Assembly: GCA_016217555.1 (NCBI GenBank)
Contig: JACRHW010000006.1
Location: 18,153 to 82,152, forward strand
Length of the DNA: 64,000 nucleotides
Direction: 5' to 3'
Origin: Parcubacteria group bacterium
GTDB lineage: Bacteria > Patescibacteriota > Minisyncoccia > UBA6257 > JACRHW01
Shown one piece after another: positions 1,404 to 18,716 of the stretch. Each line of letters opens with the position of its first letter. The first letter of the stretch is position 1. The position numbers and the translations under genes are program-made. Below the pieces are notes generated by a model. It had not been told where the DNA came from. It did not search any database and worked only from the letters and a program-made list of their open reading frames with translations.

Positions 1404-1745
1404 ATGGTTACAGGACATATGTTAGTTACCTTTCATATTCCGTGGAATGATTATGTTGCTTCTCAAGGAGCTATGGAGCATGTAGGTACGTTTTTAAAAA
1501 GTTATGGTGTTCTTTCGGTGAGGACAGCAGATAGCATGCTCATTGTAATAGGGTCCGAAGGTTATAAAGAGAGCTTTCAGACAATGACGTTTGAGGCATT
1601 GCTTTCTGGTAGTAAAGAAGATGCTCAAGTAATGATTGATAATCTTTTTAAAACTGGACGGATTCCATCAGGAAGAGAGTGGCAGGTTCTTTATCGTTGT
1701 GCCGGGGAAGATGATGTAAAGAGCTTTCGAGGGGAGGAGGTGTGA
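1404..1745 (+). CDS. hypothetical protein
   Basis: ORF track 113 aa; GGAGG upstream of ATG. Confidence 0.4.
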   Translation: MVTGHMLVTFHIPWNDYVASQGAMEHVGTFLKSYGVLSVRTADSMLIVIGSEGYKESFQTMTFEALLSGSKEDAQVMIDNLFKTGRIPSGREWQVLYRCAGEDDVKSFRGEEV

Positions 1746-1864
1746 TATGGATTAGGAATTGATAAGATAGTCGATTACTTTTTTGGGTAACAAAATATAT
1801 GAGACCTCGCAATGAGGCCTTTTTTATTTTATAATTTGTATACCTAAGAAATTAAGTATCAAAT

Positions 1865-2323
1865 ATGGAACAATGTATTTTTTGTAGTATTGCAAAGGGG
1901 GAGATGTCGGCACATGTAATTTGGGAGGATGAGAGGCACATGGCGTTTCTTTCTATTTTTCCCAATACGGAGGGATTTTCGGTAGTGATTACCAAAGAAC
2001 ATTATCCGAGTTATGCTTTTGATCTCCCTGAGAAAGTGCTGGAAGGTTTAGTTATTGCTGCACGAGAGGTGGCAAAGAGGTTGGATGGTGCATTAGAAGA
2101 TGTAGGAAGGACAGGAATGATGTTTGAGGGGTTCGGCATAGACCATGTTCATGCGAAGCTTTTCCCCATGCATGGAACGAAGATGGATAATTGGAAGGCG
2201 TTGAAATCAAATGTAGATAAATATTTTGATCAATACGAGGGATATATTTCATCGCATGATTATAAACGCGCAGATGATGAGGTGTTAGCAAAATTAGCTA
2301 AAAAAATAAAAGGAATGTCATAG
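1865..2323 (+). CDS. HIT-family (histidine triad) nucleotide hydrolase/transferase
   Basis: N-terminal CIFCSI zinc-ribbon-like motif typical of HIT proteins; DHVHAKLFP histidine-triad-like motif. Confidence 0.7.
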   Translation: MEQCIFCSIAKGEMSAHVIWEDERHMAFLSIFPNTEGFSVVITKEHYPSYAFDLPEKVLEGLVIAAREVAKRLDGALEDVGRTGMMFEGFGIDHVHAKLFPMHGTKMDNWKALKSNVDKYFDQYEGYISSHDYKRADDEVLAKLAKKIKGMS

Positions 2324-2329
2324 CAAAGG

Positions 2330-2510
2330 AGACACACCCCATCTCACCTTCACTAGAGATTTCGTTTTGGATAAATAATCTACATTTGTTTAACGTAAAA
2401 TTATTAACTCGTTCCTACGGAACTCAAACAGAATAATTTTTCTACAAATGTATTCTTATTTATCACCAAAACTCCATCATGTCGCTCAGGTGAGATGGGG
2501 TGTGCTCTAG
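2330..2510. repeat. approx. 180-bp element closed by a perfect 19-bp inverted repeat (ACACACCCCATCTCACCT / AGGTGAGATGGGGTGTG) with nested internal hairpins
   Basis: Seen directly; sits between convergent HIT (+) and NRAMP (-) genes. Confidence 0.55.
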
Positions 2511-2550
2511 ACGACAATTTTGTTTGAATGCATCCACGACCAGTCTTTTC

Positions 2551-3825
2551 TTAAAAACTGGTTATAAAAAGGGCGAGGGTGGCGAGGAACATAATAATGG
2601 CGATGCTAATTCCAAGGAGATTTTGTAGTGGGGAGTTCGTATGACTTCCCATTATTTTTTTATTGTTGCAGATAAGAAGTATAAGAAGAATAAGGGGGGG
2701 TGCGATAATACCGTTTAGTACTGCAGTATAGTAGAGCATTTTGAAAGGAGGAATACCAAGCATGTTTATAAATACCCCTATACCCGTAGCGGCTATGATA
2801 ACTCCATAAAAATGTTTTGCTTCCTTGAAGGTGAGAAAGAGTCCTGCCTTCCACCCGACAGCCTCTGCAACAGCATAAGCAATTGATCCCGCAAGGATAG
2901 GAACGGCGAGGAGTCCCACCCCTATGATTCCTAATGTAAATAAGAGGGAGGCAAAGTTACCAGCAATGGGGCGTAACGCCTCCGCTGCCTGAGCGGCAGT
3001 ATCGACAGCGAATATTCCCTGCGGTTGTAATGCGGATGCGGCGGTTGCTATGATAAAAAACATGATCAGGTTTGAGAAGAACATTCCCATGATCGTATCA
3101 GTGTGAAGGTGGTTGATCCCCCTTTTTGATATTTTTGGTTTTCCCTCTCCAATTCCTGTAATAACTCCTGCTTTGATTTCTTCCTCTACCTCTTCATCGG
3201 CTTGCCAGAAAAAAAGATAAGGGGATATAGTAGTACCCAATACCGCAACAATGTTTAATATGTATTCTTTTTCAAAAGAAAAGTGGGGTAGTACTGCCGC
3301 ACGGAGGAGAGCTCCCCAATCTTGTCGTACAAAAAGTGCACTTGCAACATAGGCGAAGAGCGAGAAGGCAAAATATTTTAAAAACTGTGCATAGCGAGCA
3401 TAGGGAACAAAAATCTCAAGAATAAGGACAAAGGCGGTAAACCCGATGAGAAGACTCAGGAAGGGAAGAGATGGAAAAAGAAGTTGGCTTGTTGCAGCCA
3501 TCGCGCCCAGATCAGCCCCAATATTAATAGTGTTGGCAATGAAGAGGAAGCCTACTGCGCTATAGAGAAGTATTTTTGAATAATGTTTTTTAAGAATTCC
3601 TGAAAGACCATTGCCTGTTACAAGCCCAATACGGCCACACATTTCTTGGAGGGCGATCATAAAGGGAAGTGAATAGAGGGGTGTCCAGAGTTGAGAGAGT
3701 CCAAACTGTGCACCTGTTTGTGCGTAGGTGGCAATTCCGGAGGGATCATCGTCAGCTGCGCCCGCAATAAACCCAGGTCCTATTTTTTTAAAAAACGTAG
3801 TAAAGAAATTTTTATTTTGTTTCAT
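2551..3825 (-). CDS. mntH: NRAMP-family divalent metal (Mn2+/Fe2+) transporter
   Basis: GPGFIAGAADDDPSGIATY motif (Nramp DPGN region); multi-TM; start placed at third Met of the ORF (MKQNKNFF). Confidence 0.8.
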   Translation of the reverse strand: MKQNKNFFTTFFKKIGPGFIAGAADDDPSGIATYAQTGAQFGLSQLWTPLYSLPFMIALQEMCGRIGLVTGNGLSGILKKHYSKILLYSAVGFLFIANTINIGADLGAMAATSQLLFPSLPFLSLLIGFTAFVLILEIFVPYARYAQFLKYFAFSLFAYVASALFVRQDWGALLRAAVLPHFSFEKEYILNIVAVLGTTISPYLFFWQADEEVEEEIKAGVITGIGEGKPKISKRGINHLHTDTIMGMFFSNLIMFFIIATAASALQPQGIFAVDTAAQAAEALRPIAGNFASLLFTLGIIGVGLLAVPILAGSIAYAVAEAVGWKAGLFLTFKEAKHFYGVIIAATGIGVFINMLGIPPFKMLYYTAVLNGIIAPPLILLILLICNNKKIMGSHTNSPLQNLLGISIAIIMFLATLALFITSF

Positions 3826-3934
3826 ATATAGTTTCTTGAAGTATAACATGTAGCGAAAAAGAGAAGTCTGTCGACAAATCAACGAAATATGCTTTACTTA
3901 ACTTAGCACAAAAATCCCAAGGGGGAATTATAAA

Positions 3935-4393
3935 ATGAGTATACCAAACATCATCAAGATCGACCGTACGAAGCCTTTCGATCCCGAAATCTTCATCGGC
4001 AAGGAGTGGGGTTTCTGGAAGGGTCCGATTGATGGCAATGGTCTCGAGAGACTTATTGGTAAGCGGGATGACGATTTGCGGCAACGCTTTGGAGATACAC
4101 TTACTGTGGAACGTATCGTTGAAGAGACAAGTAAGATGTATCATATCTATTTTCTTATTCCTGTGGGGGCAGCGGGTGGCCATGACAAGGATATGTATCG
4201 AAGATGGGTTGGGCTGCTCGGTCAGCGCAATGTAATTAGGGTATCGGATCCAGCGGTAATTTGTGAAGTTATCGCAACGGTCATTGCTCGTGAAAAGGGC
4301 GTAATAGAAAGTGATGTATCTAATGTTGATGTACTAAGAAAGCTTGGATTTGATACAAAAAAAGCGCGTCTCGTTGCACACTCTTTTGGGTAG
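3935..4393 (+). CDS. stand-alone homolog of the C-terminal domain of the two downstream vWA proteins
   Basis: KMYHIYFLIPVGAAGG..RRWVGLLGQRNVIRVSDPAVICEVIATVIA aligns with KRYHLFHIIPEGGDN..RRSWMGLLGEDHVFTLSDPALVSAIISTTI (4579-5499) and with the C-terminus of 8066-9031. Confidence 0.6.
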   Translation: MSIPNIIKIDRTKPFDPEIFIGKEWGFWKGPIDGNGLERLIGKRDDDLRQRFGDTLTVERIVEETSKMYHIYFLIPVGAAGGHDKDMYRRWVGLLGQRNVIRVSDPAVICEVIATVIAREKGVIESDVSNVDVLRKLGFDTKKARLVAHSFG

Positions 4394-4578
4394 GTTTTAA
4401 ACATGGCGGCCGCTCTTATTGCGGCTTTTTAATTTCTCAAATAAAAATTATCTTTGGTGTATCGAAAAGAGTCCAAGGGGTAATTTGACGAGAATGTTTT
4501 GGTATGGTAAAGTTGTCTTGATTTCCGTAAGGTATTTCCTTGCGGGGATTTGAAAACAGAAAAAAGGAGAAAGACAAA

Positions 4579-5499
4579 ATGGGTGGAGGAAGTTGGAACA
4601 CTGACGCATATGCAGAGACAACACGTGGAGCAAGTGCTTTTAAGTATAGTGATCAGGTGCGACAACAGAGGCCGAGTGAACGGAAGGCTCATGGCGAACT
4701 TGATCCGTACGGACTTACCGTGCGTGAAAGTAGGGATAGTGAAGAACATCCTCTTTCAAACCCAGTTATGCTATGTCTTGATGTAACAGGTTCGATGGGG
4801 AAGGTGGTCTATGGACTTCGCGATGGACTTGGAGATCTTATGGGGACATTGCTTGCGGGTGAGTATGTTTCCGATCCACAACTTCTGTTTTGTGCGATTG
4901 GCGATGCGGGTCGCGGAGATCGTGTTCCATTCCAAATTACTCAATTCGAGTCTGATTTGAGAATTAATGATCAGCTTACCAAGGTGTTTATTGAGGGCGG
5001 TGGTGGTAATAACATGGAGTCATATCAATTTTATTTCTATGCCGCCGCATATCACACCGAGATTGATTGTTTTGAGAAACGTGAGAGGAAGGGATATCTA
5101 TTTTCCATTGGTGATGAGGCGCCCTATCCAGAAGTCAATCAAAATGAAATTTTGAGAATCTTCGGTGTACAACTTCAGGGTAATATTCCAATTACGCGGG
5201 TGGTTGAACAGGCGAGAAAGCGCTATCATCTTTTTCATATTATCCCAGAGGGTGGAGATAATTTTAGTAATTCCAGCATTCGTCGTTCGTGGATGGGTCT
5301 TCTTGGGGAGGATCATGTATTCACTCTCAGCGATCCCGCTCTCGTTTCAGCGATTATCAGCACTACCATTGGTATGAACGAAGGTAAGATTACTCTCGAA
5401 GAGGGTCTTCGTAGGCTTGATCAGAAGATTGATGGGCACGGTAAGGCAAGTGTGGAGAATACTCTTAAGCCATTTGCCCGAGTTCTTGGTGTAGCGTAG
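4579..5499 (+). CDS. von Willebrand factor A (vWA) domain protein, TerY-like, paralog A
   Basis: MIDAS-type LDVTGSMG, FIEGGGGNNMESYQ and IGDEAPY motifs; AGGAG SD 8 nt upstream of ATG 4579. Confidence 0.75.
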   Translation: MGGGSWNTDAYAETTRGASAFKYSDQVRQQRPSERKAHGELDPYGLTVRESRDSEEHPLSNPVMLCLDVTGSMGKVVYGLRDGLGDLMGTLLAGEYVSDPQLLFCAIGDAGRGDRVPFQITQFESDLRINDQLTKVFIEGGGGNNMESYQFYFYAAAYHTEIDCFEKRERKGYLFSIGDEAPYPEVNQNEILRIFGVQLQGNIPITRVVEQARKRYHLFHIIPEGGDNFSNSSIRRSWMGLLGEDHVFTLSDPALVSAIISTTIGMNEGKITLEEGLRRLDQKIDGHGKASVENTLKPFARVLGVA

Positions 5500-5564
5500 T
5501 GGTAATAGGTTGATGGACTCGCAGCGACGAGTCCGTTTCTCTAAATGGGAAGGAGGGGTTTGTT

Positions 5565-6917
5565 GTGCAAAGGGTTTTTCTTACCGCAGATCTTGGATTT
5601 GGTGATGGGGGGAAGGGATCAATTGTTGATTATCTTGTTCGTCGTGAAAGGGCAGGAACTGTGGTGCGTTACAACGGTGGAGCGCAGGCTGGTCACCATG
5701 TAGTATTGTCTGACGGACGAAGTCATGTGTTTTCTCAGTTTGGAAGTGGTGCATTGGTGGATGGTGTAAAAACGCACCTCTCACGTTTCATGCTTATTGA
5801 ACCGATTGCGATGATGGATGAGTCACGTCGTCTAAAGGAGCTTGGGTGTGATGACGCGTTTTCTCGTGTCACTATCGACAGGGATGCCCTTCTTATCACT
5901 CCATTTCATGTCGCTGCGAATCGACTTATTGAAATGGCTCGAAATAAAGATAGGCATGGAAGTTGTGGTATGGGTATCGGTGAGACAATGGAAGATTTTC
6001 TTGAACTTGGACTAGGAGCACCACACATTCATGATTTATTTGATCAAACTTGTCTCGTGGAAAAGTTTCGACACATTCAGGCAAGAAAGAGGGAGAAAAT
6101 ACGCGATGTTCTCAATGAACTTCCCTCTTCAAACGAGGTGTCGTCACTTCTCGCTTATTTCGACAGTGCCTATGATTTTAACCATTGGCTTTCTTTCTAT
6201 GCACATTTTTTGGAGTTGGTCACTATTGTCGATGGATCATATCTCGGGGAAGGCTTAAAAGACGAAACAGTTGTATTCGAAGGTGCACAAGGTATCCTAC
6301 TTGATCAGATGTATGGATTTTCTCCCTATAATACGTGGACTGATATTACATTCAATAATGCACAAAAACTTCTTGATGAGGCTAGATATGATGGTGGTGT
6401 GAAACGTATTGGAATTATGCGTGGATATTTTACTCGTCATGGAGCAGGTCCCTTTGTTACAGAAGATGTCCAGATGACAGATTACTTTATTGATGTGTGC
6501 AATAAAAATAATGCATGGCAGGGTGGATTTCGTGTTGGGCATTTTGATATGGTTGCACTTCGCTATGCACTGGATGTCATCGGCGGAGTGGATGAATTGG
6601 CGATTACAAATCTTGATCGGATAATCAGTTATGTTGGGAAGGTAAAAATTTGTACCCAATATACTATTGGTGAAGAGGTCGTTTCTAGGTTAGGGGTCGC
6701 ACGACCCACAAGCGTTGCACACCAAGAGAGACTTACCGCCCGTCTCATGAACGCCGTGCCATTGTATACCGAAGAGTATCCTTGTAGAGGTACGAAAGAC
6801 ACCATTAAATATGCTAAAAGGCTTGGTGAACTTTCTGGCGTATCTCCCACAATTATTTCTTTTGGACCCACCGCAGAAGATAAAATGCTACTCAACACAT
6901 TTCTGGCAATACACTAG
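5565..6917 (+). CDS. adenylosuccinate synthetase (PurA)-family ligase, divergent paralog
   Basis: GDGGKGSIVD (P-loop, cf. GDEGKGK), YNGGAQAGHH (cf. GGNNAGHT), GSCGMGIGE (cf. GTTGRGIGP), FEGAQGILLD (exact PurA motif), FTRHGAGPF; but PurA loop GATTGRRRRTGW is replaced by NNAWQGGFRVGH; GTG start after AGGAGG. Confidence 0.75.
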   Translation: MQRVFLTADLGFGDGGKGSIVDYLVRRERAGTVVRYNGGAQAGHHVVLSDGRSHVFSQFGSGALVDGVKTHLSRFMLIEPIAMMDESRRLKELGCDDAFSRVTIDRDALLITPFHVAANRLIEMARNKDRHGSCGMGIGETMEDFLELGLGAPHIHDLFDQTCLVEKFRHIQARKREKIRDVLNELPSSNEVSSLLAYFDSAYDFNHWLSFYAHFLELVTIVDGSYLGEGLKDETVVFEGAQGILLDQMYGFSPYNTWTDITFNNAQKLLDEARYDGGVKRIGIMRGYFTRHGAGPFVTEDVQMTDYFIDVCNKNNAWQGGFRVGHFDMVALRYALDVIGGVDELAITNLDRIISYVGKVKICTQYTIGEEVVSRLGVARPTSVAHQERLTARLMNAVPLYTEEYPCRGTKDTIKYAKRLGELSGVSPTIISFGPTAEDKMLLNTFLAIH

Positions 6918-7034
6918 AGAACGGAACCGTACGATACGTACGGTTTTATATTGCACAAAACATATTTGACACTCAGAGCAAGTGTGCTATTCTTTTAAAG
7001 GTTATTTGACAAAAAGAAAGGAGCGTGAGGAGTC

Positions 7035-8042
7035 GTGAAGGATTTCTACAAAATTCTCGAGGTAAGTCCTGGTGCGAGTCAGGCGGTTATCGAAGCGGCG
7101 TATAATACTCTCATAGAGCAGAGGCATTTAGGGAGGGATAGTGGTGAGTTAGAAATTACTGATTTTCATGAAGCATTTGAAGTTCTCTCAAGTCCTATAA
7201 GACGTAGAAAGTATGATACAGAAAGAGGAGATTTACTGGGAAAAGTAATTCAGGGGACGAGTGGAGCATACCGTGTCATAGAACGTATATCTGCAGGAAA
7301 ATTTTGGCATACCTATCGTGGAGAACATATTCTCCTCGGGAAATCAGTATGCATTAAACACGCGATGTTTGTTTCTGCTGTTTTCGAGGAAAAGCTTCTT
7401 CGGGAGGCACGTGTTATTTGGGATATTCGGCACTATTCTATTCCTGTCGCGCGTGATATTATTCGGCTTGAGGATGGAAGCCTGGCGCTCGTGATGAGCT
7501 ATATCGAAGGGAAGACCCTCGCTACTATTATTCGAGAGCATGGTTCGCTCGATTCTGAACATGTGGCTTGGATTGCAGAGAGAGTCCTCAATGTATTAAA
7601 TTATCTCCACGATGAAGGTGTCGTACACGGAGATGTGCAGCCGGCTAATGTAATTGTTCAGGCGTCTTCACACCGTTTAGTACTTGTAGATTATGGGCTT
7701 GCACTCGTGAAGCCAACTGAAAAATCAGGGGTTGATGGATTTACGCCACTTTTTGCTTCTCCTGAGGCGAAGGGTGGGGGGCCACTTCTTCCGGAATCTG
7801 ATTATTTTTCTCTTGGTATGATGATGATATATGCCTTGCTTGGTGAAAAGATTTTTTTGATTGATCAAAAAATACCAGCAAATGTGCCATCGGCGCTTCG
7901 TGAATTTATTGAACGGCTCATTGTGTCAGAATTACATCTTCGCCCTGATCGAGAAAAAGAAGATCTTTTTGAAACGATCCAAAAGGTGCGGAAGCAGGTC
8001 TTTGGTCGTCGTCGTTCTGAGATGAAACTGCTTCTCGTCTAA
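7035..8042 (+). CDS. J-like domain (HPD motif absent) fused to Ser/Thr protein kinase
   Basis: N-term DFYKILEVSPGAS..HEAFEVLSSPIRRRKYD is J-domain-like with HPD replaced by HLGRD; kinase motifs VCIK (VAIK), HGDVQPANVIV (catalytic loop), VDYGLA (DFG), ASPE (APE). Confidence 0.75.
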   Translation: MKDFYKILEVSPGASQAVIEAAYNTLIEQRHLGRDSGELEITDFHEAFEVLSSPIRRRKYDTERGDLLGKVIQGTSGAYRVIERISAGKFWHTYRGEHILLGKSVCIKHAMFVSAVFEEKLLREARVIWDIRHYSIPVARDIIRLEDGSLALVMSYIEGKTLATIIREHGSLDSEHVAWIAERVLNVLNYLHDEGVVHGDVQPANVIVQASSHRLVLVDYGLALVKPTEKSGVDGFTPLFASPEAKGGGPLLPESDYFSLGMMMIYALLGEKIFLIDQKIPANVPSALREFIERLIVSELHLRPDREKEDLFETIQKVRKQVFGRRRSEMKLLLV

Positions 8043-8065
8043 ACCAAAAAGGAGGTAGGGTCGCT

Positions 8066-9031
8066 ATGTCAGAAGGTGCAGACTATGAACGATCGAGTTC
8101 TTGGGTACCAAATCATGATTTTCGTGAAGAGCGGAGAAAGTATGAGGAACGTGCAGTAAGAGTGCGCATAGAGGAAGAAAGGAAGCCAGCTGTTTCAAAA
8201 ACCCATTCGGTGTGGGTTCCTAGTATTTCGACGACAAGCTCAAGACCTCTTATTGTAATTTCTGACGTAACGGGATCTATGGGACGTTGGCCTGCGGTTA
8301 TGGCTGGAAAACTTCCTTATCTTTATCACGAAGCAAGGGATATGTATTTGGGGGAAGATGTTGAAATATGCTGGATGGCGGTTGGTGATGCCTACGCTCC
8401 CGATAATTATCCTCTTCAAATAAGACCCTTTGCGGGAAATCGAGAGATTGTAGCCTCTCGATTAAAGGAGTTGTTCATTGAGGGTGGTGGTGGAAGTGAT
8501 GTTACAGAGAGTTATGAGCTTGCTGCTTTGTATCTCCTTCACAATTGTACTACCCCGAATACGGGAGATTCGAAACCTGTCGTGATTTTTATCGCTGATG
8601 AGCAACCATATGATTTTATCCCAGTAGATAAGGCAAAAAATGTTGCCGGAGTTACTTTGCAAAAGAGGACAAGCACTAAGGAAGTGTTCGCGAAACTCCA
8701 AGAACGATTTGCAATATATCTTGTCAGGAAGCCTTATGGAGATAATCTTGGTCGGAAAAACGAAATGGATGAGGTTAATCGGGTGATTTATCAAGCATGG
8801 GTAAAACTTCTTGGTTTTGACCATATCGCTAGTCTTCCTGATGCAGAACGGATCGTTGATGTTATCTTTGGTATTCTCGCAGCTGAAGTTGATAAGGAAG
8901 AAGAATTTCGTGGAGAAATTGAAAGACGCCAACGACCTGAGCAAGTTACGTCGGTATATAAGGCTCTTGAGACTATTCATCGGAGGTTGAAACCAGATGA
9001 AGAGACGCGTCAAGCAAAACCACTTCTTTGA
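8066..9031 (+). CDS. vWA domain protein, TerY-like, paralog B
   Basis: ISDVTGSMG, FIEGGGGSDVTESYE and IADEQPY motifs; C-terminal domain shared with 3935-4393 and 4579-5499. Confidence 0.75.
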   Translation: MSEGADYERSSSWVPNHDFREERRKYEERAVRVRIEEERKPAVSKTHSVWVPSISTTSSRPLIVISDVTGSMGRWPAVMAGKLPYLYHEARDMYLGEDVEICWMAVGDAYAPDNYPLQIRPFAGNREIVASRLKELFIEGGGGSDVTESYELAALYLLHNCTTPNTGDSKPVVIFIADEQPYDFIPVDKAKNVAGVTLQKRTSTKEVFAKLQERFAIYLVRKPYGDNLGRKNEMDEVNRVIYQAWVKLLGFDHIASLPDAERIVDVIFGILAAEVDKEEEFRGEIERRQRPEQVTSVYKALETIHRRLKPDEETRQAKPLL

Positions 9032-10103
9032 TGGGTTGAAAAAGATTGGGTCCCTTGATAAGAGGGGCCCTCTTCATTTGCTGGTTACCCTTTGGCCTAG
9101 TTTTCCTCACTTTTTTGCCTTTGCAAACGACGAGCGGCTTGCTGGAATTCGTTTGAATAGCGCAATGATGGATAACCCAGAGCTAGAAAAAGAGCTTGAA
9201 CTCATTAGTAGCAATCGAAGTAATATTACTGTCCCTCTTTACTTTGATGTGAAGGGTAGACAGCTTCGTGTTGCGGAAGTGCTTGGGGATTCAGAAACTC
9301 CCTATCTCGATATTTGCCTTAATCACTCCATTGAAGTTCGTACCCCAACGACGGTGCTTTTCAAAGCAGGCGCCGATGGTGCGCGTTTACTTGCAATAGA
9401 AGAGGGCGGATATCGTTTAGTGTTTGATGGGGGGCCAATGTACCGCGTAAAACCCGGTGAGTCACTTCATGTTCTTGACCATAACCTTGAGGTGTTGGGG
9501 TCACAGTTTACGGATGCTGAACTTCATAAGATTGAAACTGTTCGAAGGGCTGGATTCACGAGATACTTTTTGTCGTATGTAGAGTCTCAACGCGACGTTG
9601 ATGAGTTTCTTGAGCTCGTTGGTCGCGACGCAGAAGTTTGGTTAAAAATTGAAAACCAAAAAGGATTGTCATTTGTAAGACACGAATTTCGCAAACGTCC
9701 AAACCTTACTCTTGTTGCTGCCCGCGGTGATCTTTATGTTGAGCTCGCTGGGTGTGAAATTTTGGATGCGTTGCGGCTTATCATAGATCGAGATCCTAAG
9801 GCGTGCGTTGGTTCACGGATTCTTCTCTCGACGATTCATGATGTTATTCCTCTCAATGTTCTCGATGAATTGCATTACCTTATTAATAAGAACAGCGAAT
9901 CTTGTACGGGTCTCAAGGCATTACTCTCCGAGGTGCAGGACGATAGGCCGTCATGTGCTGACCTATCAGACCTGGCATGGCTTTACGATCTTGGATATCG
10001 AAACATAATGCTTTGTGATGAGCTATGCCTTAAGGAACGATGGTTGGGAAAAGCCATCAATGTGTTCGATGAATTTAGAACAAGTTTAGAAAATAAAAAA
10101 TAA
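8997..10103 (+). CDS. pyruvate-kinase-like (PK/PEP-utilising) TIM-barrel enzyme lacking the C-terminal PK domain
   Basis: FDVKGRQLRV (cf. DTKGPEIR), IRLNSAMMD (cf. RLNFSHG), WLKIENQKGL (cf. KIENQEG), LVAARGDLYVE (cf. MVARGDLG); 35-nt overlap with upstream vWA gene. Confidence 0.65.
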   Translation: MKRRVKQNHFFDGLKKIGSLDKRGPLHLLVTLWPSFPHFFAFANDERLAGIRLNSAMMDNPELEKELELISSNRSNITVPLYFDVKGRQLRVAEVLGDSETPYLDICLNHSIEVRTPTTVLFKAGADGARLLAIEEGGYRLVFDGGPMYRVKPGESLHVLDHNLEVLGSQFTDAELHKIETVRRAGFTRYFLSYVESQRDVDEFLELVGRDAEVWLKIENQKGLSFVRHEFRKRPNLTLVAARGDLYVELAGCEILDALRLIIDRDPKACVGSRILLSTIHDVIPLNVLDELHYLINKNSESCTGLKALLSEVQDDRPSCADLSDLAWLYDLGYRNIMLCDELCLKERWLGKAINVFDEFRTSLENKK

Positions 10104-10106
10104 AGT

Positions 10107-10141
10107 AAAAACCCCAATAAGGGGTTTTGTTTTTGATTTTT
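10107..10141 (+). terminator. Rho-independent terminator
   Basis: AAAACCCCAATAAGGGGTTTTGTTTTTGATTTTTT directly after stop of 8997-10103. Confidence 0.65.
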
Positions 10142-10194
10142 TATTGTGGTCGACATATACTGTCGGTAGAACATTTAAATGGAGGTGAAGTGTA

Positions 10195-10434
10195 ATGGTA
10201 TGGTTTCTCATACTTTGGTGCCTTTTGGGATATTGGGTAATTGCGGTACTCGCACGGTGTAAGGTGAAGAACGAAACGGGTAGTTGGGATGTGCTTGATA
10301 AGTGCATAGGTATCATTTTTATGTGGTTTGGAATTCTTATGCTGTATATGTCTATGGAATATATTGTCGCGCATGGGGATAAAGACTGTTTTGTTCATCC
10401 CTTGTGGAACTGGCCATGGTATAGTAAAAAGTAA
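10195..10434 (+). CDS. small membrane protein (2 predicted TM helices)
   Basis: ORF track; hydrophobic MVWFLILWCLLGYWVIAVLA. Confidence 0.4.
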   Translation: MVWFLILWCLLGYWVIAVLARCKVKNETGSWDVLDKCIGIIFMWFGILMLYMSMEYIVAHGDKDCFVHPLWNWPWYSKK

Positions 10435-10475
10435 TATGGTAGCTCGGGAATACCCGAGTTTTTAATTTCACCACA

Positions 10476-11258
10476 ATGAAGCAAAAAATTAAAATTTTAT
10501 TTTTTGATATTTTGACTCCTGATTTAAAGCAGCGGGAGCTTTTTAATAGGGAGATTTATAGAGGAAGTACCTATTCAGAGGTTACAAGGCAGATGGTGGG
10601 TTTGAAACCAGAAGAATGGGTATACTGTGATGCAACACAGAGTGTATTTCCTGAGGATGTTGAACAGTTTGACGGGGTGATTATTGGCGGTTCGACGGGG
10701 GATCCTGTTCCAGGATACGAAAAGCCATGGATAAAAAAGACGTATCCTTATATTAGAAAAATCGTAAAAAAAGGGATTCCACTTCTTGGTATTTGTGGTG
10801 GTCTTCAGTTCACTGTGCGAGCCTTAGGGGGTGAGGTGATTTTTAATCCCAAAGGGAAGGAGTTCGGGACGATACGTGTTGAGGTGACTAAGGAGGGGAA
10901 GAGCGACCTGCTCTTTAAGGGTCTTCCAAAAAGTATTTGGTTTCAATCCAACCATAAGTGCATAGCAAAGGAACTTTTGCCAGAATGGAAATTGCTTGGT
11001 TCATCAGAAATGTGCGAGCCTCAGGCTATTGGAATAGGCGACAAGGTGCGTCTCCTTCAGTTTCACCCTGAGAAAAAATCAGCGCACCTTAAGCATCTCG
11101 TGCGTATGAAGAAGGCGGCCTTTTTTGAAGATGGATTTTTTAAGGATGAAAAGGCAGTAAAAAAGTTCCTTGCTTCAATAAAGAACACAGATCCCGCAGG
11201 CAAAAAAATTCTCCGTAATTTTATCGCACACTTCGTGTTTCCCAATAAGCATCGCTAG
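10476..11258 (+). CDS. class I glutamine amidotransferase-like (peptidase C26 / GATase1) enzyme
   Basis: Nucleophile elbow GICGGLQ and C-terminal LLQFHPE (His-Glu of triad). Confidence 0.75.
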   Translation: MKQKIKILFFDILTPDLKQRELFNREIYRGSTYSEVTRQMVGLKPEEWVYCDATQSVFPEDVEQFDGVIIGGSTGDPVPGYEKPWIKKTYPYIRKIVKKGIPLLGICGGLQFTVRALGGEVIFNPKGKEFGTIRVEVTKEGKSDLLFKGLPKSIWFQSNHKCIAKELLPEWKLLGSSEMCEPQAIGIGDKVRLLQFHPEKKSAHLKHLVRMKKAAFFEDGFFKDEKAVKKFLASIKNTDPAGKKILRNFIAHFVFPNKHR

Positions 11259-11380
11259 TCATTACTACTAGATGGTATGCTGCATCATACCACCCACACC
11301 TTTTTGATAGCTATCTAGATTTGTGCTACATTGTGTGTTATGTTTTGTGCAGTTCTTTGTCTCACTAAGGAGGGTTCTCA

Positions 11381-11618
11381 AGTGACGCTTATGAAGTTCA
11401 TTGAGAAACACAAACTCTCTGACACCACAGATTTGAGTCAAATTCCTCTTGTGCATCCCAAGACAGGAAAGAAGATTTATGTAGTTTCATCATGGTTTTC
11501 TGGCTTTTGGTATCGGCGGAAACCAGGAAGTGTTGGTCGCGTATACCCCTATCAGTACTACGGATCTTTGCTGGAACTTGAAGTTCATCCCGATGCCGAT
11601 GCGCAAAAAAAGAAATAA
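11381..11618 (+). CDS. small hypothetical protein (about 78 aa from the GTG start)
   Basis: AAGGAGG SD then GTG/ATG; lies between GATase1 and the GCS2 genes. Confidence 0.3.
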
Positions 11619-11820
11619 TTTTTTAAAGATAGTCGCAGATGACACCATGCGGCTTTTGTTTTTGTTGACGAGATTGACGAACAAAAGAACTTAGCGTATA
11701 AAGAAGATAATATGGAGCAACAGAAATATACATTTACGTATTGGTTTAGCTTTAGACTTCTCTCGGGGAAGGGGACTTTTGTTGCAACACGTGGGTAATA
11801 CCTAAATATTGTAACTATAT

Positions 11821-11855
11821 AAAAAGCCTCTTCCCTGGAAGAGGTCTTTCGTTTT
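11821..11855. terminator. bidirectional hairpin terminator
   Basis: GCCTCTTCCCTGGAAGAGGTC stem flanked by A-run and T-run. Confidence 0.4.
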
Positions 11856-11924
11856 ATGCCAGGGCGAAAACGTTCTGAGTGTAATCGAAGGATTATTCTT
11901 CTGGGAACAGTACTTTGAAAAAAA

Positions 11925-12005
11925 GAGCACGCCTTTGCCCCTAGGGGCTTCGGCGAGGCAAGGTCCGCCTGCGTTAAAACTGCGGCGAGGCAAGGAAGGG
12001 GGAAA
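11925..12005 (+). promoter_or_regulatory. GC-rich structured 5' leader with direct repeat GGCGAGGCAAGG x2 and palindrome GCCCCTAGGGGC
   Basis: Seen directly; unusually GC-rich for this genome; immediately upstream of the GCS2 gene. Confidence 0.3.
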
Positions 12006-12012
12006 GATATAA

Positions 12013-12777
12013 ATGACTGAAACTACACTTCCTGAATTTTTGGGAAAGTTTGATTTTCGCGATGAGCTTACGGGATATGTGGGTATCGAGCGTGAACATT
12101 TTCTTGTCGATCGACATGGTATTCTTGTGCCGAGATCAAAGGATTTTTTGGATGCCATTAATGATCCACGCTGGACGTATGAACTTTCGGCGTGTCAGGT
12201 GGAGGACAGAACGAATCCACAGAGAGAAATAGGAGCGATTAAGCTTGAGCTTCTCGAGAACGATAACAACGCAAAGCTGTGTGCAGAAAAGTTAGGAATA
12301 TGTGTGATAAATAAAGAGGTTCAAGACAAGGATATGCCACTTGAGGTGTATCCCGACCCACGTTACTTGGAAATAGTACGTAATATTGATCGCGAACGTT
12401 TATGTTCTGCATGTCGTGTGACGGGGACGCATATCCACATAGGTGTCTCAGATATGATGAGTGCAATTGCTACCTATAACTTGTTACTTCCTTATCTCGA
12501 AGAGTTGTGCGAACTTGGCGACCACTCGGATGGAGAGCGGTTGAGACTCTACAAAACCATGGCAACATTTTGGAAACCTGAGCGATATAGAAATGTTCAT
12601 GAACTTTTCAAGGTGGCCACATTGCGTGGCTTTGCTGATAATCCAAGAAATTGTTGGGATCTCATACGCATTAGTAGACATGGGACGATTGAGCTTCGTA
12701 TGTTTGGAGTTACTGATCACGTTGACGAGGTGCTCATGTGGGTGTCTCGTATCAAAAAAATCCTGCCGCTCCGGTGA
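12013..12777 (+). CDS. GCS2/YbdK-family carboxylate-amine ligase (glutamine-synthetase fold), short form
   Basis: GIEREHFLVD, TGTHIHIGV and TIELRMFG motifs. Confidence 0.6.
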   Translation: MTETTLPEFLGKFDFRDELTGYVGIEREHFLVDRHGILVPRSKDFLDAINDPRWTYELSACQVEDRTNPQREIGAIKLELLENDNNAKLCAEKLGICVINKEVQDKDMPLEVYPDPRYLEIVRNIDRERLCSACRVTGTHIHIGVSDMMSAIATYNLLLPYLEELCELGDHSDGERLRLYKTMATFWKPERYRNVHELFKVATLRGFADNPRNCWDLIRISRHGTIELRMFGVTDHVDEVLMWVSRIKKILPLR

Positions 12778-12840
12778 GAGCGATGAATCTCTCGAAAGAG
12801 AAATTCATCACCCTGAGGGGCGGAAAAGGAGGAGGGTGCT

Positions 12841-14238
12841 ATGTTGGATAAGGACAAGGTAGAAAAGAATGAAAGAGAAATGCACGAATCGTTTTGTGAG
12901 AAGGCACGAGAGCTGATTATGCAAGAGGAGCAGTTTAGGAAACCAGAGGGTACTCAGCTTGTGGGGTTTGAGTCAGAGGTGGCGCTTGATACAAAGCACC
13001 TTGAGGTGAGTGAACTTGAGGCGACACGCGATGCAATTATTCACGAAGTAGGTGAAAGTGCAGACATTGAACTTGGTGCAGGACAGATTGAGGTAAGAAC
13101 TCCGCCGTTTGATATTCTCGCCGAGGAAGGTTTTCGACAACTTCTTACGGTATACAGAAATGAGTTTGCAAAAGTATGCCATGCAGCACACAAGCGAAAT
13201 ACGCAAATTATGCGAGTAGGCGCAAATCCCTTTTTGCCTATCAAAGATACGCCGAGGACAAGTAAGCCAAAATACACACAAGTCCCGGATTTCTATAACA
13301 CCCATCGTGGGTGTCATGTCGACACACATATTGGTCTCGGAAATACACAAATCAATATTGGATTCGCCGAAGTTGTTTCTTTGTTTCAGTCTTTTCAGAT
13401 TAATATAGAGGCACGATCATTTCGTGATGCTATCGATAAGATGAATCGATCATTTGTGGTCGCACCTTACCTTTTGGCTCTTTCTGGGAATGCTCGGTAC
13501 TTGAATTGTATCGATACTCACTTGAATGATATGCGTATGATGGCGTGGGAGAAGAGCCACGATACAAGAATGCAGGATGTTCGTGTTCTTTCTTGGGAGA
13601 GAAGTTTCGATATGCGTAGTAATGAGGACGTACGTAATGGCAAATTACTTCGTATTGGATTGCCGGAACGATACTTTGAAGATATGAAAGATTACCTTGT
13701 ACGAGCAGGACAATTTCCTTTTATTCTTCACAATCCAGAGGCAACACTTCAGATTGCTATTGGCATGACGTGGCTTGATACGCGTGTGAAATTTATTGGT
13801 GATGCTTGTGTCGTCGAACTTCGTATCCTTCCCACCCAACCCTCTATTGAGGAAGAAGTGGCACTTATGTTTTTTTACATCGGTTGGCTCGTTGATGCAC
13901 AAATACGAGGTGAGAAACTTCTCCCTATCAATTTCGTTCGTGAGAATAGGCTTTCTGCTATGATGTACGGTGTACATAGGCCCATGTGGTTTATGTCCGA
14001 CGCAAATGAATGTGAGCAATTGCAGGCGTTTGAGGGTATTACTCGTGAAATAGAGAGAGCGTGGCGCGGTCTTAGACATCTCGGACTTGATCAATTGTTT
14101 CATGCCGGACTTCTTCATCTCACCCCTGCCCTTACATCACCCTCTGATAGACTTGGGAAGATTCTTGCACATGATGGTGAATGCATTCCCGCAGAACGGA
14201 TGAGACAGGCACTTAAGGAAGCTATGATGTTGTTTTAA
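12841..14238 (+). CDS. GCS2-like carboxylate-amine ligase, large paralog
   Basis: GFESEVAL, QIEVRTPPF and CHVDTHIGLG motifs; GGAGGAGGG SD. Confidence 0.5.
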   Translation: MLDKDKVEKNEREMHESFCEKARELIMQEEQFRKPEGTQLVGFESEVALDTKHLEVSELEATRDAIIHEVGESADIELGAGQIEVRTPPFDILAEEGFRQLLTVYRNEFAKVCHAAHKRNTQIMRVGANPFLPIKDTPRTSKPKYTQVPDFYNTHRGCHVDTHIGLGNTQINIGFAEVVSLFQSFQINIEARSFRDAIDKMNRSFVVAPYLLALSGNARYLNCIDTHLNDMRMMAWEKSHDTRMQDVRVLSWERSFDMRSNEDVRNGKLLRIGLPERYFEDMKDYLVRAGQFPFILHNPEATLQIAIGMTWLDTRVKFIGDACVVELRILPTQPSIEEEVALMFFYIGWLVDAQIRGEKLLPINFVRENRLSAMMYGVHRPMWFMSDANECEQLQAFEGITREIERAWRGLRHLGLDQLFHAGLLHLTPALTSPSDRLGKILAHDGECIPAERMRQALKEAMMLF

Positions 14239-14243
14239 TTTTT

Positions 14244-14280
14244 AAAGACGAGGAAATCCTCGTCTTTTTCTTTTCTTTTT
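14244..14280 (+). terminator. Rho-independent terminator
   Basis: AAGACGAGGAAATCCTCGTCTTTTTCTTTTCTTTTTT. Confidence 0.65.
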
Positions 14281-14305
14281 TGGATGCCAGGATTATGATG
14301 TATTT

Positions 14306-14656
14306 ATGATAGACATTTCTAAAATTACAGACTATTTATATCTAGGTTCACAGCCGGAGCTTGAGGGATATAAGTATCTTGAGGATAACGGTGTGAAGTT
14401 AGTTATTAATATGCGTCTCATGCACCCACTCTTTAGAGATGTTGCGCCTGTACCTATTGAGATTTTACGTTTGCGTACTTTTGATGCGCCACTTTTTCCT
14501 ATTCCTGTGATGGCATTAGTGCGGGGAGTAGAAACAGCTCTTCCCCATACTAAAAATGGTGGAAAGGTATTTACGCATTGTAAGGCAGGAGTGCATCGTT
14601 CTGTTGCCATGGCATCGTCTATCCTTATTGGTATGGGACATACATCTTTGTTATAA
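14306..14656 (+). CDS. Cys-based protein phosphatase (dual-specificity/PTP-like), short
   Basis: Active-site HCKAGVHRS (CX5R) with upstream Asp in TFDAP. Confidence 0.7.
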   Translation: MIDISKITDYLYLGSQPELEGYKYLEDNGVKLVINMRLMHPLFRDVAPVPIEILRLRTFDAPLFPIPVMALVRGVETALPHTKNGGKVFTHCKAGVHRSVAMASSILIGMGHTSLL

Positions 14657-14665
14657 TGAAAAAAT

Positions 14666-14941
14666 ATGAACACACTCTATTATTTTATTGGGTTTGGGGT
14701 ATTGGGTGGCGTGGTTCGCGCACTAGTGGGGATCTCGAAGTATTATGAGAAAAATAAAAAAGAGAAGAGAATTCGCTTTGGCTATCTTTTCTTTTCGCTT
14801 TTAGTTTCTGCTTTGGTGGGTGGAGTCGCGGGGGCACTCGCAGGATATGATTGGCGGTTTGCGGTAATTGCGGGATATGCAGGAGCCGACTTTTTCGAGG
14901 GACTTTATAAGATACGTATGAAACAGGGTTTTGAGATATAA
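14666..14941 (+). CDS. small membrane protein (2 TM, Gly/Ala-rich)
   Basis: ORF track; hydrophobic segments. Confidence 0.4.
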   Translation: MNTLYYFIGFGVLGGVVRALVGISKYYEKNKKEKRIRFGYLFFSLLVSALVGGVAGALAGYDWRFAVIAGYAGADFFEGLYKIRMKQGFEI

Positions 14942-14955
14942 AGAGGTAAACATAA

Positions 14956-15062
14956 GATAACCATACCAATATACGAATGATACTAATACTACAAATCAAT
15001 ACGAATATCGTACGTATTCGTAACCATTCGTATCATTTGTATGGATTCGTATATTAGTATTT
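14956..15062. repeat. 107-bp imperfectly palindromic element (TACGAAT/ATTCGTA-rich, centred on CGTACG), copy 1; exact reverse complement of 34528-34634
   Basis: Base-by-base comparison of both copies. Confidence 0.85.
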
Positions 15063-15072
15063 TGATTGATAT

Positions 15073-15921
15073 ATGAAACCAAACATTGGTGCACACGTGT
15101 CTGCTTCCGGCGGACTTTTTAGGGGTATAGAGAATGCACAGGCGATTGGTGCGGAGTGTCTTCAGCTTTTTGGTGCCTCTCCTCAGCAATGGGTGGCGAG
15201 GATGCCGAGCGATGAAGATTTCGCAAGATTTAGGGAGGCTCGTAAAAAAAGCGGTATTGGTCCTGTCTTTCTACATGCGGCCTATCTTCCTAATCTTGCA
15301 ACGGCTGATCACGGTATGTACGAGAAATCGATTAAGAATCTCTCTGAGCATCTTGCTATTGCAGAACGTATGGGGGTGGAGGGGCTCATTTTTCACGTAG
15401 GATCAGGAAAAGAGGCACCCAAGGAAGAGGCGATTAAGAAGGCAGTTCTCGGCATGAAAAAAATTCTAAAAGTTGTTCCTGGAAAAACAATGCTTATTAT
15501 GGAAAATTCTGCAGGAGGGGGGCAGAAGTTGGGGTCAAGCGCGCACGAGATGGGATTGATGTTGAAGGGTGTTGATTCGGGGCGCATTAAAATATGTATT
15601 GATACCGCGCACGCATTCGAAGCAGGAACCGTGGAGGGGTATACCAAGGAACATGTCAAACAATTTTGTGATGAGTGGGACAAAGAGATAGGGCTAGAGA
15701 ATGTTGTTGCACTCCACGTAAATGATTCTAAAACGGTATTTAATTCTCACCACGATCGGCATGAAAATATTGGCGAAGGATATATTGGACTTGAGGGGTT
15801 CAAAAACATTGCTGCAGAAAAACGACTACACAACAAGGCATGGATTTTAGAGGTTCCTGGTTTTGACGGCAACGGACCTGACAAGAGAAACGTAGATATT
15901 CTCAAATCTTGTTTTAAATAA
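15073..15921 (+). CDS. nfo: endonuclease IV (AP endonuclease)
   Basis: MKPNIGAHVSASGGL..ECLQLF Nfo N-terminus; TIM-barrel xylose-isomerase-like. Confidence 0.85.
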   Translation: MKPNIGAHVSASGGLFRGIENAQAIGAECLQLFGASPQQWVARMPSDEDFARFREARKKSGIGPVFLHAAYLPNLATADHGMYEKSIKNLSEHLAIAERMGVEGLIFHVGSGKEAPKEEAIKKAVLGMKKILKVVPGKTMLIMENSAGGGQKLGSSAHEMGLMLKGVDSGRIKICIDTAHAFEAGTVEGYTKEHVKQFCDEWDKEIGLENVVALHVNDSKTVFNSHHDRHENIGEGYIGLEGFKNIAAEKRLHNKAWILEVPGFDGNGPDKRNVDILKSCFK

Positions 15922-15948
15922 AAAACTTCGCGTATGAGCGAAGTTATA

Positions 15949-18715: not shown

Positions 18716-18716
18716 T

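Follow-up and report, generated by a model that had tools for sequence, protein, structure and literature searches.

Gao et al. are said to have presented the TerY-P triad, in 2020, as a stand-alone defence system. As related in the part of PMC11090510 that deals with it, this triad consists of a TerY-like vWA protein, a PP2C phosphatase and a Ser/Thr kinase (Anantharaman, Iyer and Aravind 2012), and the literature links it to enzymes predicted to make nucleoside-like metabolites. The MoxR–vWA/GTPase-centric systems combine a vWA adaptor with a protein that uses nucleoside triphosphates (NTPs), often have inactive kinases and DnaJ/Hsp70 links, and are over-represented in actinobacteria and chloroflexi (Kaur, Burroughs, Iyer and Aravind 2020, PMC7159879). 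Actinobacteria and planctomycetes also contain ARG-centred ADP-ribose systems, in which a Nudix-HTH/WYL regulator goes with a vWA 'peptide-binding chaperone' and a nucleotide enzyme (Iyer, Burroughs and Aravind 2022, PMC9503650). NrtR proteins, finally, respond to ADP-ribose, and members of that family release DNA upon binding (PMC2330246). The locus compared here with these systems lies in a stretch of 64,000 nucleotides (the window) of contig JACRHW010000006.1, from a metagenome-assembled genome of the Parcubacteria group (Patescibacteria) whose identical public proteins bear the locus tags HZA35_00890 and HZA35_00910. An earlier note had read thirteen of its genes as a single TerY-P-like signalling and nucleotide-metabolite pathway. 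The analysis showed that bases 4579-10103 are two conserved, paralogous adaptor-enzyme cassettes placed side by side and that the remainder is ordinary neighbourhood; the thirteen genes are not one unit, and only these two small blocks are conserved. Cassette A is formed by the vWA protein vWA1 and a PurA-like ligase, and cassette B by a kinase with a J-like domain, a second vWA protein (vWA2) and a protein like pyruvate kinase (PK-like).

The neighbourhood comparison covered about 190 related loci, among them 80 loci of species-representative genomes, 80 viral loci of IMG/VR and 22 cassette-B loci. Neighbour genes were clustered all against all on subsets of these loci, and the spurious clusters produced in high-GC genomes by antisense and alternative-frame open reading frames (ORFs) were set aside. 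In 78 of the 80 genome loci the next gene after vWA1 is the PurA-like one, both exceptions being contig ends, and the two are adjacent in 77 of the 80 viral contigs. Sequenced phages contain the two families in identical numbers (202 Mycobacterium, 10 Rhizobium and 6 Vibrio phages, 218 in total), the 202 being all Mycobacterium phage genomes that match either family, among which Bixzunavirus examples were the ones inspected. Cassette A occupies a conserved genome position in the 202 Bixzunavirus-type phages. Pairwise distances of vWA1 and of the PurA-like protein correlate closely over 159 loci (r=0.94), and the family alignments of both show high conservation and no fast diversification. A J-domain kinase-like gene accompanies the pair in 67/80 genome and 34/80 viral loci, and also in Bixzunavirus. 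Among annotated phages, Bixzunavirus has the order kinase – vWA – 88 aa – PurA-like, and Vibrio phage Va1 and Rhizobium phage RHph_Y65 carry the pair as well; public labels put 'hypothetical protein' beside 'PurA-like adenylosuccinate synthetase'. The vWA1 profile gave at least 587 matches in one-genome-per-species collections, including Streptomyces, Kitasatospora, Frankia, Micromonospora, Actinomadura, Tepidisphaeraceae/Phycisphaerae, Chloroflexota, Saccharibacteria and Sungbacteria, and further copies of the cassette are found on plasmids of Rhodococcus and Agrobacterium. Cassette A is mobile among bacteria, plasmids and large phages, and the coupling of vWA/kinase signalling to non-canonical nucleotide enzymes, which the earlier note had proposed for this one genome, is conserved well beyond it.

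Translation of vWA1 most likely starts at ATG 4579 (MGGGSW) and not at TTG 4540; the public annotation also begins MGGGSW. The two vWA proteins are indeed paralogues, as had been suggested, both with the metal ion-dependent adhesion site (MIDAS) sequence DVTGSMG and 29% identical to each other. The AlphaFold2 (AF2) model of vWA1 has an integrin-type vWA fold and matches integrin beta-I and other vWA domains in Foldseek (E~5e-7), and both proteins match phrog_2971 (vWA1 with E=1e-51, vWA2 with E=1.6e-23). Within the vWA1 family the MIDAS motif DVTGSM is present in 118 of 120 members. The N-terminal 54-55 residues or so are predicted to be disordered and are nevertheless conserved (MGxGxW ... 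RESRDSxEHP), with MG as the first residues in 115/120, mostly as MG(S/G)GxW, and the C terminus ends in a basic residue followed by Leu ([RKH]L, 94/120), to which the window protein, ending in …LGVA, is an exception. The family is discrete: 2326 representatives were found at E≤1e-3 among 1.84 billion, and the 150 best are nearly all aligned from residue 1, N-terminal fusions being rare. Inteins usually sit at essential, conserved sites, and the one that interrupts the vWA protein of Bixzunavirus in its conserved strand GYxF|IGDE was therefore counted as a sign of its importance to the phages. Gene 259 of Mycobacterium phage DrPhinkDaddy (L091 4951-6732) encodes a vWA homologue of 593 aa with an intein-like insert (C...HN|C) that splits GY(L)F|IGDE beside the MIDAS site, and several other representatives of the family give a profile match in two stretches.

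The PurA-like protein of the window reaches 211 bits with Pfam Adenylsucc_synt, 181.5 bits with NCBIfam NF002223 against a cutoff of 402, and 167 bits with TIGR00184 against a cutoff of 396. PurZ was ruled out as its identity by score (NF038379, 41.9 bits vs a cutoff of 300), the match being confined to the N-terminal 140 residues; DatZ, MazZ and DpoZ were not found among the conserved neighbour clusters, no search having been aimed at them. PHROGs places the protein in phrog_1211, and the label '2-aminooxy adenylosuccinate synthetase' that comes with it applies at the level of the family. Individual residues were read from an alignment to E. coli PurA and from an alignment of the subfamily built on 77 loci. 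The window protein keeps GDGGKGS (Asp13/Lys16), GGAQAGH (His41) and FEGAQG (Gln224), as do at least 90% of the 77 members, and the subfamily, whose P-loop reads GDaGKG, also keeps the guanine-specificity residue Asp333 and SxGP. The aspartate loop TTGRRRR (Thr300, Thr301, Arg303, Arg305) has become WQGG-FR in the window and WQG-aFR family-wide, so that the description of a PurA-family ligase with a replaced aspartate-binding Arg loop was right. The 5'-phosphate loop GTTGRG reads GSCGMG in the window and HGsCGmG family-wide (Thr129 replaced by Cys); the Cys is present in at least 60% of the 77 sequences and in all rows displayed. No Arg is equivalent to Arg143, which in PurA contacts the 5'-phosphate of inosine monophosphate (IMP) from the partner subunit, next to Thr128 and Thr129. 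Since the catalytic core is kept while the aspartate loop and the 5'-phosphate contacts are lost, we infer an altered specificity: the enzyme is non-canonical but catalytically plausible rather than dead, and it would still use guanosine triphosphate (GTP) to activate a 6-oxopurine, with a nucleophile other than aspartate and with the 5' end of the substrate probably bound differently. A canonical PurA (GDEGKGK, TTGRPRR) is encoded on a Daviesbacteria contig that carries cassette B (L086), and Streptomyces and its relatives possess a normal purA; neither a canonical purA nor a second pyruvate kinase gene was found in the 64-kb window. The vWA1–PurA-like/kinase–vWA2–PK-like core is co-conserved elsewhere and its PurA-like and PK-like proteins are not canonical housekeeping enzymes, so that the outcome which the earlier note had named as refuting it does not apply to this core; the canonical PurA coexisting with cassette B in the Daviesbacteria contig supports this.

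The kinase of the window is a true fusion of a J-like domain with a Ser/Thr kinase, as predicted (Pfam DnaJ 33.6 bits, above its cutoff; Pkinase 101.6 bits), and its catalytic residues are canonical (VCIK with the beta3 Lys, HGDVQPAN and DYG). It belongs to cassette B, being 47% identical to the other cassette-B kinases, and its J domain (7035-7230) has HLG at the position of HPD, the tripeptide that stimulates Hsp70, which is present in the other four of the five cassette-B kinases. The two cassettes differ markedly at the kinase active site. Canonical catalytic residues are found in 5/5 kinases of cassette B, whereas in cassette A the catalytic Asp is replaced in all 101 kinases analyzed (by Ala in 90) and the catalytic Asn by His in 93/101, the beta3 Lys, the DFG Asp and HPD being mostly kept. 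The cassette-A proteins are J-domain pseudokinases or at best atypical kinases. Gating of the output by phosphorylation of the vWA proteins, as had been proposed, cannot be general, with the catalytic Asp present in 0/101 PurA-linked kinases.

Cassette B has the order J-kinase – vWA2 – PK-like in 22/22 Patescibacteria and viral loci, that is, in the window, in four independently chosen contigs and in 17/17 complete IMG/VR loci. The junction of the last two genes is tight or overlapping, by 35 nt in the window and by 29 nt in L172; the 35-nt overlap reported earlier is therefore real and recurs elsewhere. Unlike vWA1, vWA2 begins with MSE and not with MG, and so do the PK-linked vWA2 proteins. 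The AF2 model of the PK-like protein (pLDDT 87) shows the A-domain TIM barrel of pyruvate kinase with an inserted B domain, and its top 50 Foldseek matches in the PDB are all pyruvate kinases (E~1e-17, TM 0.6-0.68, 13-17% identity), which ruled out an aldolase of HpcH/CitE type or a phosphoenolpyruvate (PEP) mutase. With 368 aa (304-409 aa in the family) the C domain is absent and the model stops after the barrel helices. The truncated pyruvate-kinase-like barrel of the earlier note proved to be a true A+B fold. The sequence score is weak (TIGR01064, 24.7 bits vs a cutoff of 306); the KIEN and ARGDL motifs, which in pyruvate kinase hold the catalytic Lys and the Mg ligands, align to pyruvate kinase, the N-terminal pattern RLN/DxKGxQxR is kept, and the residues of the K+ and PEP sites were matched by eye. 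The family comprises 1226 clusters, all of those with a lineage name being from Patescibacteria and 55-60% identical to the window protein, and two paralogues occur within one locus (L088). In one Logan contig (SRR35552088_117832, L173) cassette B stands among short ORFs and HNH, EF-G-like and R2K ATP-grasp genes, and this phage-like look suggests that the cassette is possibly carried by viruses of Patescibacteria too.

The genes outside these two blocks behave differently. Every ORF and domain assignment of the earlier note was borne out by domain searches, and profile searches confirmed HIT, Adenylsucc_synt, DnaJ with Pkinase, GATase1, two GCS2 proteins and DSPc. However, GATase, GCS2a, GCS2b, DSP, TM91, HIT and NRAMP were found in none of the 80 genome and none of the 80 viral vWA1/PurA-like loci, nor in the 21 other cassette-B loci, and they recur only in the close relatives L088, L008 and L174. 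The order in L088, whose PK-like protein is 75% identical to that of the window, is vWA2 – PK-like … GATase … GCS2 – GCS2 – DSP – TM91, broken up by BipA and Fic genes (Fic of 728 aa). The part of it from GATase onward lies at 8247-14793, with GCS2 proteins of 257 and 461 aa followed by DSP and a holin-like membrane protein of 91 aa. The L008 contig stops at GATase, and L174, a 3-kb contig with GCS2a–GCS2b–DSP, is the single further contig that two metagenome scans with GCS2b yielded. These seven genes are best treated as lineage-specific neighbours.

Nor is the region as compact as had been thought. NRAMP is on the minus strand, and since nearly all genes of the window are on the + strand, the co-directionality of the others is uninformative. 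The spacing is not uniformly tight, gaps of 372 nt (10103-10476) and 754 nt (11258-12013) occurring with terminator-like hairpins between genes; 26 terminator-like sites were counted in the region, where shuffled sequence gave 11.3±3.6. Transcription probably proceeds in four units, vWA1–PurA-like–kinase–vWA2–PK-like, GATase, GCS2a–GCS2b and DSP–TM91 (Table 1). The Cys phosphatase keeps its CX5R loop (HCKAGVHRS) and scores 32.2 bits with PTP-NADK, above the cutoff. In this respect the earlier note was correct, but with 116 aa the protein is about 35 C-terminal residues shorter than the 150-aa homologue in L088, the domain is short at its C terminus, and the gene may be decaying. The next gene begins 9 nt on, and the C-terminal helices of the phosphatase are apparently deleted. 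An imperfect palindrome of about 105 bp is present where a repeat had been noted (14955-15065, fold z=-2.75), and a second, inverted copy is found at 34520-34635. Since the repeat is dispersed, its other copy lying 19.5 kb away, a role as boundary or terminator of the locus was ruled out; only its existence, and not its value as a marker of the locus end, was upheld.

Table 1. Positions of genes and putative regulatory features at the locus, numbered from the first base of the window
Feature	Position	Strand	Basis or remark
HIT	1865-2323	+	domain search
NRAMP	2551-3882	minus	domain search
152-aa protein, stand-alone copy of vWA1 C-terminal half	3935-4393	+	BLASTP to vWA1
Terminator-like hairpin, 5' of vWA1	4408-4426	+	likely 5' edge of core unit
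vWA1, MIDAS-type vWA adaptor, cassette A	4579-5499	+	family alignment, AF2/Foldseek, phrog_2971
PurA-like GTP-dependent ligase, cassette A	5565-6917	+	Pfam Adenylsucc_synt, alignments, synteny
Promoter-like site, 5' of J-like kinase gene	6966-6993		
J-like domain::Ser/Thr kinase, first gene of cassette B	7035-8042	+	Pfam DnaJ + Pkinase
vWA2, paralogous vWA adaptor, cassette B	8066-9031	+	identity to vWA1, phrog_2971
PK-like, pyruvate-kinase A (TIM barrel) + B domains	8997-10103	+	AF2 model, Foldseek
Hairpin directly 3' of PK-like, terminator-like on both strands	10108-10128	+	likely 3' edge of core unit
Further terminator-like hairpins	10441-10460; 14244-14267		
Class-I GATase (GATase1)	10476-11258		
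GCS2a ligase	12013-12777		
GCS2b ligase	12841-14238		
DSP-type Cys phosphatase (DSPc, CX5R)	14306-14656		
TM91, 91-aa membrane protein	14666-14941		

Compared with TerY-P, the cassettes share a stand-alone MIDAS vWA protein encoded beside a Hanks-type kinase in a small conserved block. Nevertheless, the vWA proteins form a distinct family, marked by an N-terminal tail and by a helical domain at the C terminus; the kinase carries its J domain at the N terminus and is a pseudokinase in cassette A; and in the place of a phosphatase the third partner, which does not vary, is an enzyme, PurA-like or PK-like. No Pfam, NCBIfam, PADLOC or TerY match was obtained for vWA1, and vWA2 gave only VWA_2 at E=0.007, below the cutoff. 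No PP2C was found in the 20 ORFs scanned (675-17618), and the phosphatase is, as had been noted, of Cys type (DSPc with CX5R). The kinase has no C-terminal zinc ribbon or OB fold, its DnaJ-like domain being N-terminal and its C terminus unextended. PADLOC returned generic kinase matches and no model for vWA, PurA-like, PK-like, GATase or GCS2. A TerY-P-like triad was accordingly not recovered: there is no PP2C and no TerY-type vWA, the kinase architecture differs, and the Cys phosphatase is truncated and not co-conserved.

By score and by active-site residues the enzyme is neither PurA nor PurZ, and the cassettes are not a MoxR–vWA system either. Like PurZ, the PurA-like enzyme is a phage-borne paralogue with changed specificity that shares the fold and the GTP-dependent catalytic core of PurA, but it falls below both family cutoffs, is always paired with a vWA protein and has a changed aspartate loop and changed 5'-phosphate contacts. 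The vWA adaptor, NTP-using protein and J-(pseudo)kinase recall the MoxR–vWA/GTPase-centric systems, from which the cassettes differ in having no MoxR AAA+, DO-GTPase, GAP1 or variable effector/adaptor domains, in using a metabolic-enzyme paralogue with an intact active site, and in being carried by lytic phages. There is no AAA+ gene at the window locus, and the upstream 659-aa protein of some Patescibacteria loci is a classical AAA (PF00004), not MoxR. The cassette core has none of the ADP-ribosylglycohydrolase, rhodanese-phosphatase or restriction endonuclease components of the ARG-centred systems (PMC9503650), and its enzyme is a PurA paralogue. An NrtR-type gene stands by most bacterial copies, and Nampt/NMNAT genes by or in some phage copies, but the described NrtR regulons (PMC2330246) and the phage pathways that reconstitute nicotinamide adenine dinucleotide (NAD), NARP1/2 (bioRxiv 10.1101/2024.02.11.579819) and NARP3 (PMC13464706), have no vWA, PurA-like protein or J-kinase. 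No vWA + PurA-like + J-kinase module was described in the literature searched (NrtR, NARP1/2, NARP3, NAD–ADPr, NTP-conflict and CoCoNuT), which mentions it only as 'PurA-like' labels in phage genome announcements.

The main clue to the role of cassette A, a link to NAD and ADP-ribose, is its NrtR-type regulator. A gene of this type, with NUDIX and NrtR_WHD domains, adjoins it in 64/80 genome and 10/80 viral loci, and is upstream and co-directional in every locus whose gene order was read. Genes that recur beside the viral copies include Nampt, present in 8 of 66 non-redundant loci, NMNAT–Nudix and NrtR, and also Ro60-like, RNA-ligase and Thg1-like genes. A 416-kb contig (L099) has the order NrtR – vWA – NMNAT/Nudix – Nampt – PurA-like – J-kinase, genes for a phosphoribosyltransferase and an NMNAT/Nudix protein lie 3-4 kb upstream of the pair in Rhizobium phage RHph_Y65, and in Patescibacteria loci a NadE–NMNAT fusion adjoins a PK-like paralogue. 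The upstream NrtR-type regulator together with the Nampt/NMNAT genes of phages makes restoration of the adenine and NAD pools the most likely role. That the unexplained nrtX–nrtY genes of the NrtR regulon (PMC2330246) correspond to cassette A seems unlikely, since Proteus and Hahella have them too and they are transcribed divergently from nrtR.

Several details of these neighbourhoods are recorded here. The NrtR-like proteins of actinobacteria (L016, L081) retain the whole Nudix box (GX5EX7REUXEEXGU) and differ in this from the NrtRs that have been characterised, which are catalytically dead; that of Chloroflexota (L033) has a degenerate one (RIVDQKAG). Three Patescibacteria loci (L001 4544-16052, L006 and L007) have a 222-aa protein, the 659-aa classical AAA+ ATPase and a second vWA before vWA1–PurA-like, and an 811-aa NadE (CN_hydrolase + NAD_synthase) – NMNAT-like fusion and a PK-like paralogue after it; phosphoribosyl pyrophosphate synthetase, nucleoside deoxyribosyltransferase, DHH phosphoesterase and DNA ligase genes are nearby in L001. 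Vibrio phage Va1 encodes, about 1.1 kb upstream of the pair, a 216-aa protein (L089 4209-4859) of phrog_1017, of unknown function; judged by eye it is possibly a YbiA/NADAR-type domain, which would be another ADP-ribose link.

The reading that we prefer, tentatively and as something plausible but short of probable, is a module that rebuilds or remodels the adenine and NAD nucleotide pools when NAD+ is consumed, with the vWA protein as obligatory partner of the enzyme and the J-(pseudo)kinase as regulator. With GTP, the PurA-like enzyme would activate a purine nucleotide at its 6-oxo group and transfer the purine to a nucleophile other than aspartate, direct amination to an adenine nucleotide being the simplest such reaction, and the PK-like enzyme would carry out a phosphotransfer of PEP type. 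Each vWA would serve its enzyme as scaffold, activator or substrate presenter through the MIDAS and the conserved disordered tail, and the J-domain (pseudo)kinase would phosphorylate in cassette B, and bind and recruit DnaK in most cassette-A copies. Large phages would employ cassette A in infection, possibly for counter-defence, and bacteria under NrtR control. Several points weigh against this. NrtR, Nampt and NMNAT were not found in the 64-kb window, and NAD-salvage genes lie beside a minority of the viral loci only, some of whose 300-675 kb 'viral' contigs may be cellular. In the window, cassette A has no kinase of its own and is directly followed by cassette B, the J domain has no HPD, and vWA1 does not end in the usual [RK]L. 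A simple salvage enzyme is not obviously in need of a vWA partner and a J-domain pseudokinase, the PK-like protein could be a housekeeping enzyme given its 55-60% identity across Patescibacteria, and the steps of the mechanism are read entirely from gene order and residue conservation. It is possible, though doubtful, that the PurA-like enzyme represents new chemistry, either a one-step amination of 6-oxopurines without aspartate and PurB or a ligation of purine C6 to the N-terminal glycine of the vWA, that with the vWA and the J-pseudokinase it makes a new class of ADP-ribose/NAD-responsive module in bacteria and large phages, and that the kinase–vWA–PK-like cassette of Patescibacteria is a parallel instance.

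Were the cassettes instead an NTP-dependent conflict (defence) system, which we judge unlikely, the PurA-like protein, paralogue of a P-loop GTPase-fold enzyme, would be a GTP switch, or an effector that drains GTP/IMP or makes a toxic or alarmone nucleotide, the ligand of the vWA would be an invader or a modified host peptide, and Hsp70 would be brought in by the J-pseudokinase. The theme is like that of the vWA/GTPase/Hsp70-DnaJ/inactive-kinase systems of multicellular bacteria (PMC7159879) and of the ADP-ribose systems with Nudix-HTH and vWA in actinobacteria and planctomycetes (PMC9503650), and the phyletic bias to Actinomycetota, Planctomycetota and Chloroflexota, the plasmid copies in Rhodococcus and Agrobacterium and one locus that adjoins AbiEi/AbiEii are consistent with it. 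Yet the cassettes are accompanied neither by MoxR nor by a variable effector or toxin domain, no PADLOC model matches vWA, PurA-like or PK-like, the neighbours are mostly metabolic or housekeeping genes, the sequences are conserved and not rapidly diversifying, and the conserved genome position that the cassette has in 202 Bixzunavirus phages speaks against its being a suicide module. Quite unlikely for the module as a whole, and most plausible for the PK-like protein, is that these are housekeeping enzymes with lineage-specific regulators, a working pyruvate kinase of Patescibacteria in which kinase and vWA replace the allosteric C domain and a PurA-like adenylosuccinate synthetase of salvage. 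The wide occurrence of the PK-like protein at such identity in very many Patescibacteria lineages, its naming as pyruvate kinase by some sources, the retained KIEN, ARGDL and RLN/DxKGxQxR motifs, and an ordinary chromosomal window that shows no canonical purA or second pyruvate kinase within 64 kb all fit this idea; it is opposed by the family-wide loss from the PurA-like protein of both aspartate-binding arginines and of Arg143, the coexisting canonical PurA (L086), the low PK-like score (24.7 bits vs 306) and 13-17% identity to solved pyruvate kinases, the two PK-like paralogues of L088 and the carriage of cassette A by phages.

We hold it very unlikely that the PurA-like enzyme is a protein-directed ligase, which would attach a purine nucleotide through N6 covalently to the N-terminal glycine of vWA after removal of Met, the free amine of this glycine taking the place of aspartate, the (pseudo)kinase and DnaK then handling the modified vWA. 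To our knowledge, ligation of a purine to a protein N-terminal glycine has no precedent. The near-invariant MG start (mostly MGxGxW), the rarity of N-terminal fusions among the 150 best representatives, the 54 conserved but disordered residues, the MSE start of vWA2, which is paired with PK-like and not with PurA-like, and the family-wide remodelled aspartate pocket point in this direction. They are circumstantial, however, since the conserved terminus may equally be a docking peptide, and the conservation of the C terminus as well ([RKH]L, 94/120) suggests recognition of termini and not catalysis. The thirteen-gene pathway to a gamma-glutamylated or amidated purine nucleotide, with TerY-P-like gating by (de)phosphorylation of the vWA proteins, has become extremely improbable. 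The gene set is adjacent in the window, its order recurs in L088 and GCS2a–GCS2b–DSP recurs in L174, but this synteny is confined to close relatives (65-87% identity) and broken in L088 by BipA and Fic; the outer genes are absent from about 180 other cassette loci, hairpins and the 372- and 754-nt gaps divide the region, the phosphatase is truncated, most PurA-linked kinases have no catalytic Asp, and nothing in evidence supports such a product.

Most of the pathway originally flagged is thus neighbourhood noise, and the testable core is narrowed to the two cassettes. The preferred reading, restoration of adenine and NAD nucleotides, concerns a PurA paralogue with a catalytic core and no aspartate site that is tied to a private vWA protein in hundreds of bacterial species, plasmids and phages. 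Working out its function would probably provide a new purine-nucleotide reaction and a role for a common, unexplained block of phage genes, and could add an adenine-nucleotide arm to the phage–bacteria conflict over NAD+ depletion and reconstitution. The kinase–vWA–PK-like triad is among the more conserved unexplained operons of Patescibacteria, and is relevant to how these reduced bacteria run or regulate their energy metabolism.

The window contains otherwise ordinary chromosome genes such as MreB, HolB, MnmA, LepA, Nfo and Nth. The 152-aa protein encoded upstream of vWA1 aligns to vWA1 residues 215-284 (BLASTP E=6e-15), which agrees with the separate copy of the vWA C-terminal domain described before; it matches phrog_2971 weakly and gave no match in a Pfam search, and the terminator-like hairpin after its gene makes it doubtful whether it is part of the cassette. 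The HIT protein has HVHAK instead of HxHxH, the third His being replaced by Lys. The palindrome is made of four ATTCGTAT/ATACGAAT boxes, and both copies are intergenic, upstream of nfo (15073) and of a gene at 34591; its octamer occurs 12 times, against 2.4 expected, and an array of binding sites for a regulator and a small mobile repeat are both conceivable. The GC content of bases 18001-20000 falls to 0.337, compared with about 0.41 elsewhere, just where a D12-class N6-adenine DNA methyltransferase (18717-19883) and an ORF of 173 aa without annotation are encoded, and this dip may mark a small acquired island or the remnant of a restriction-modification system.

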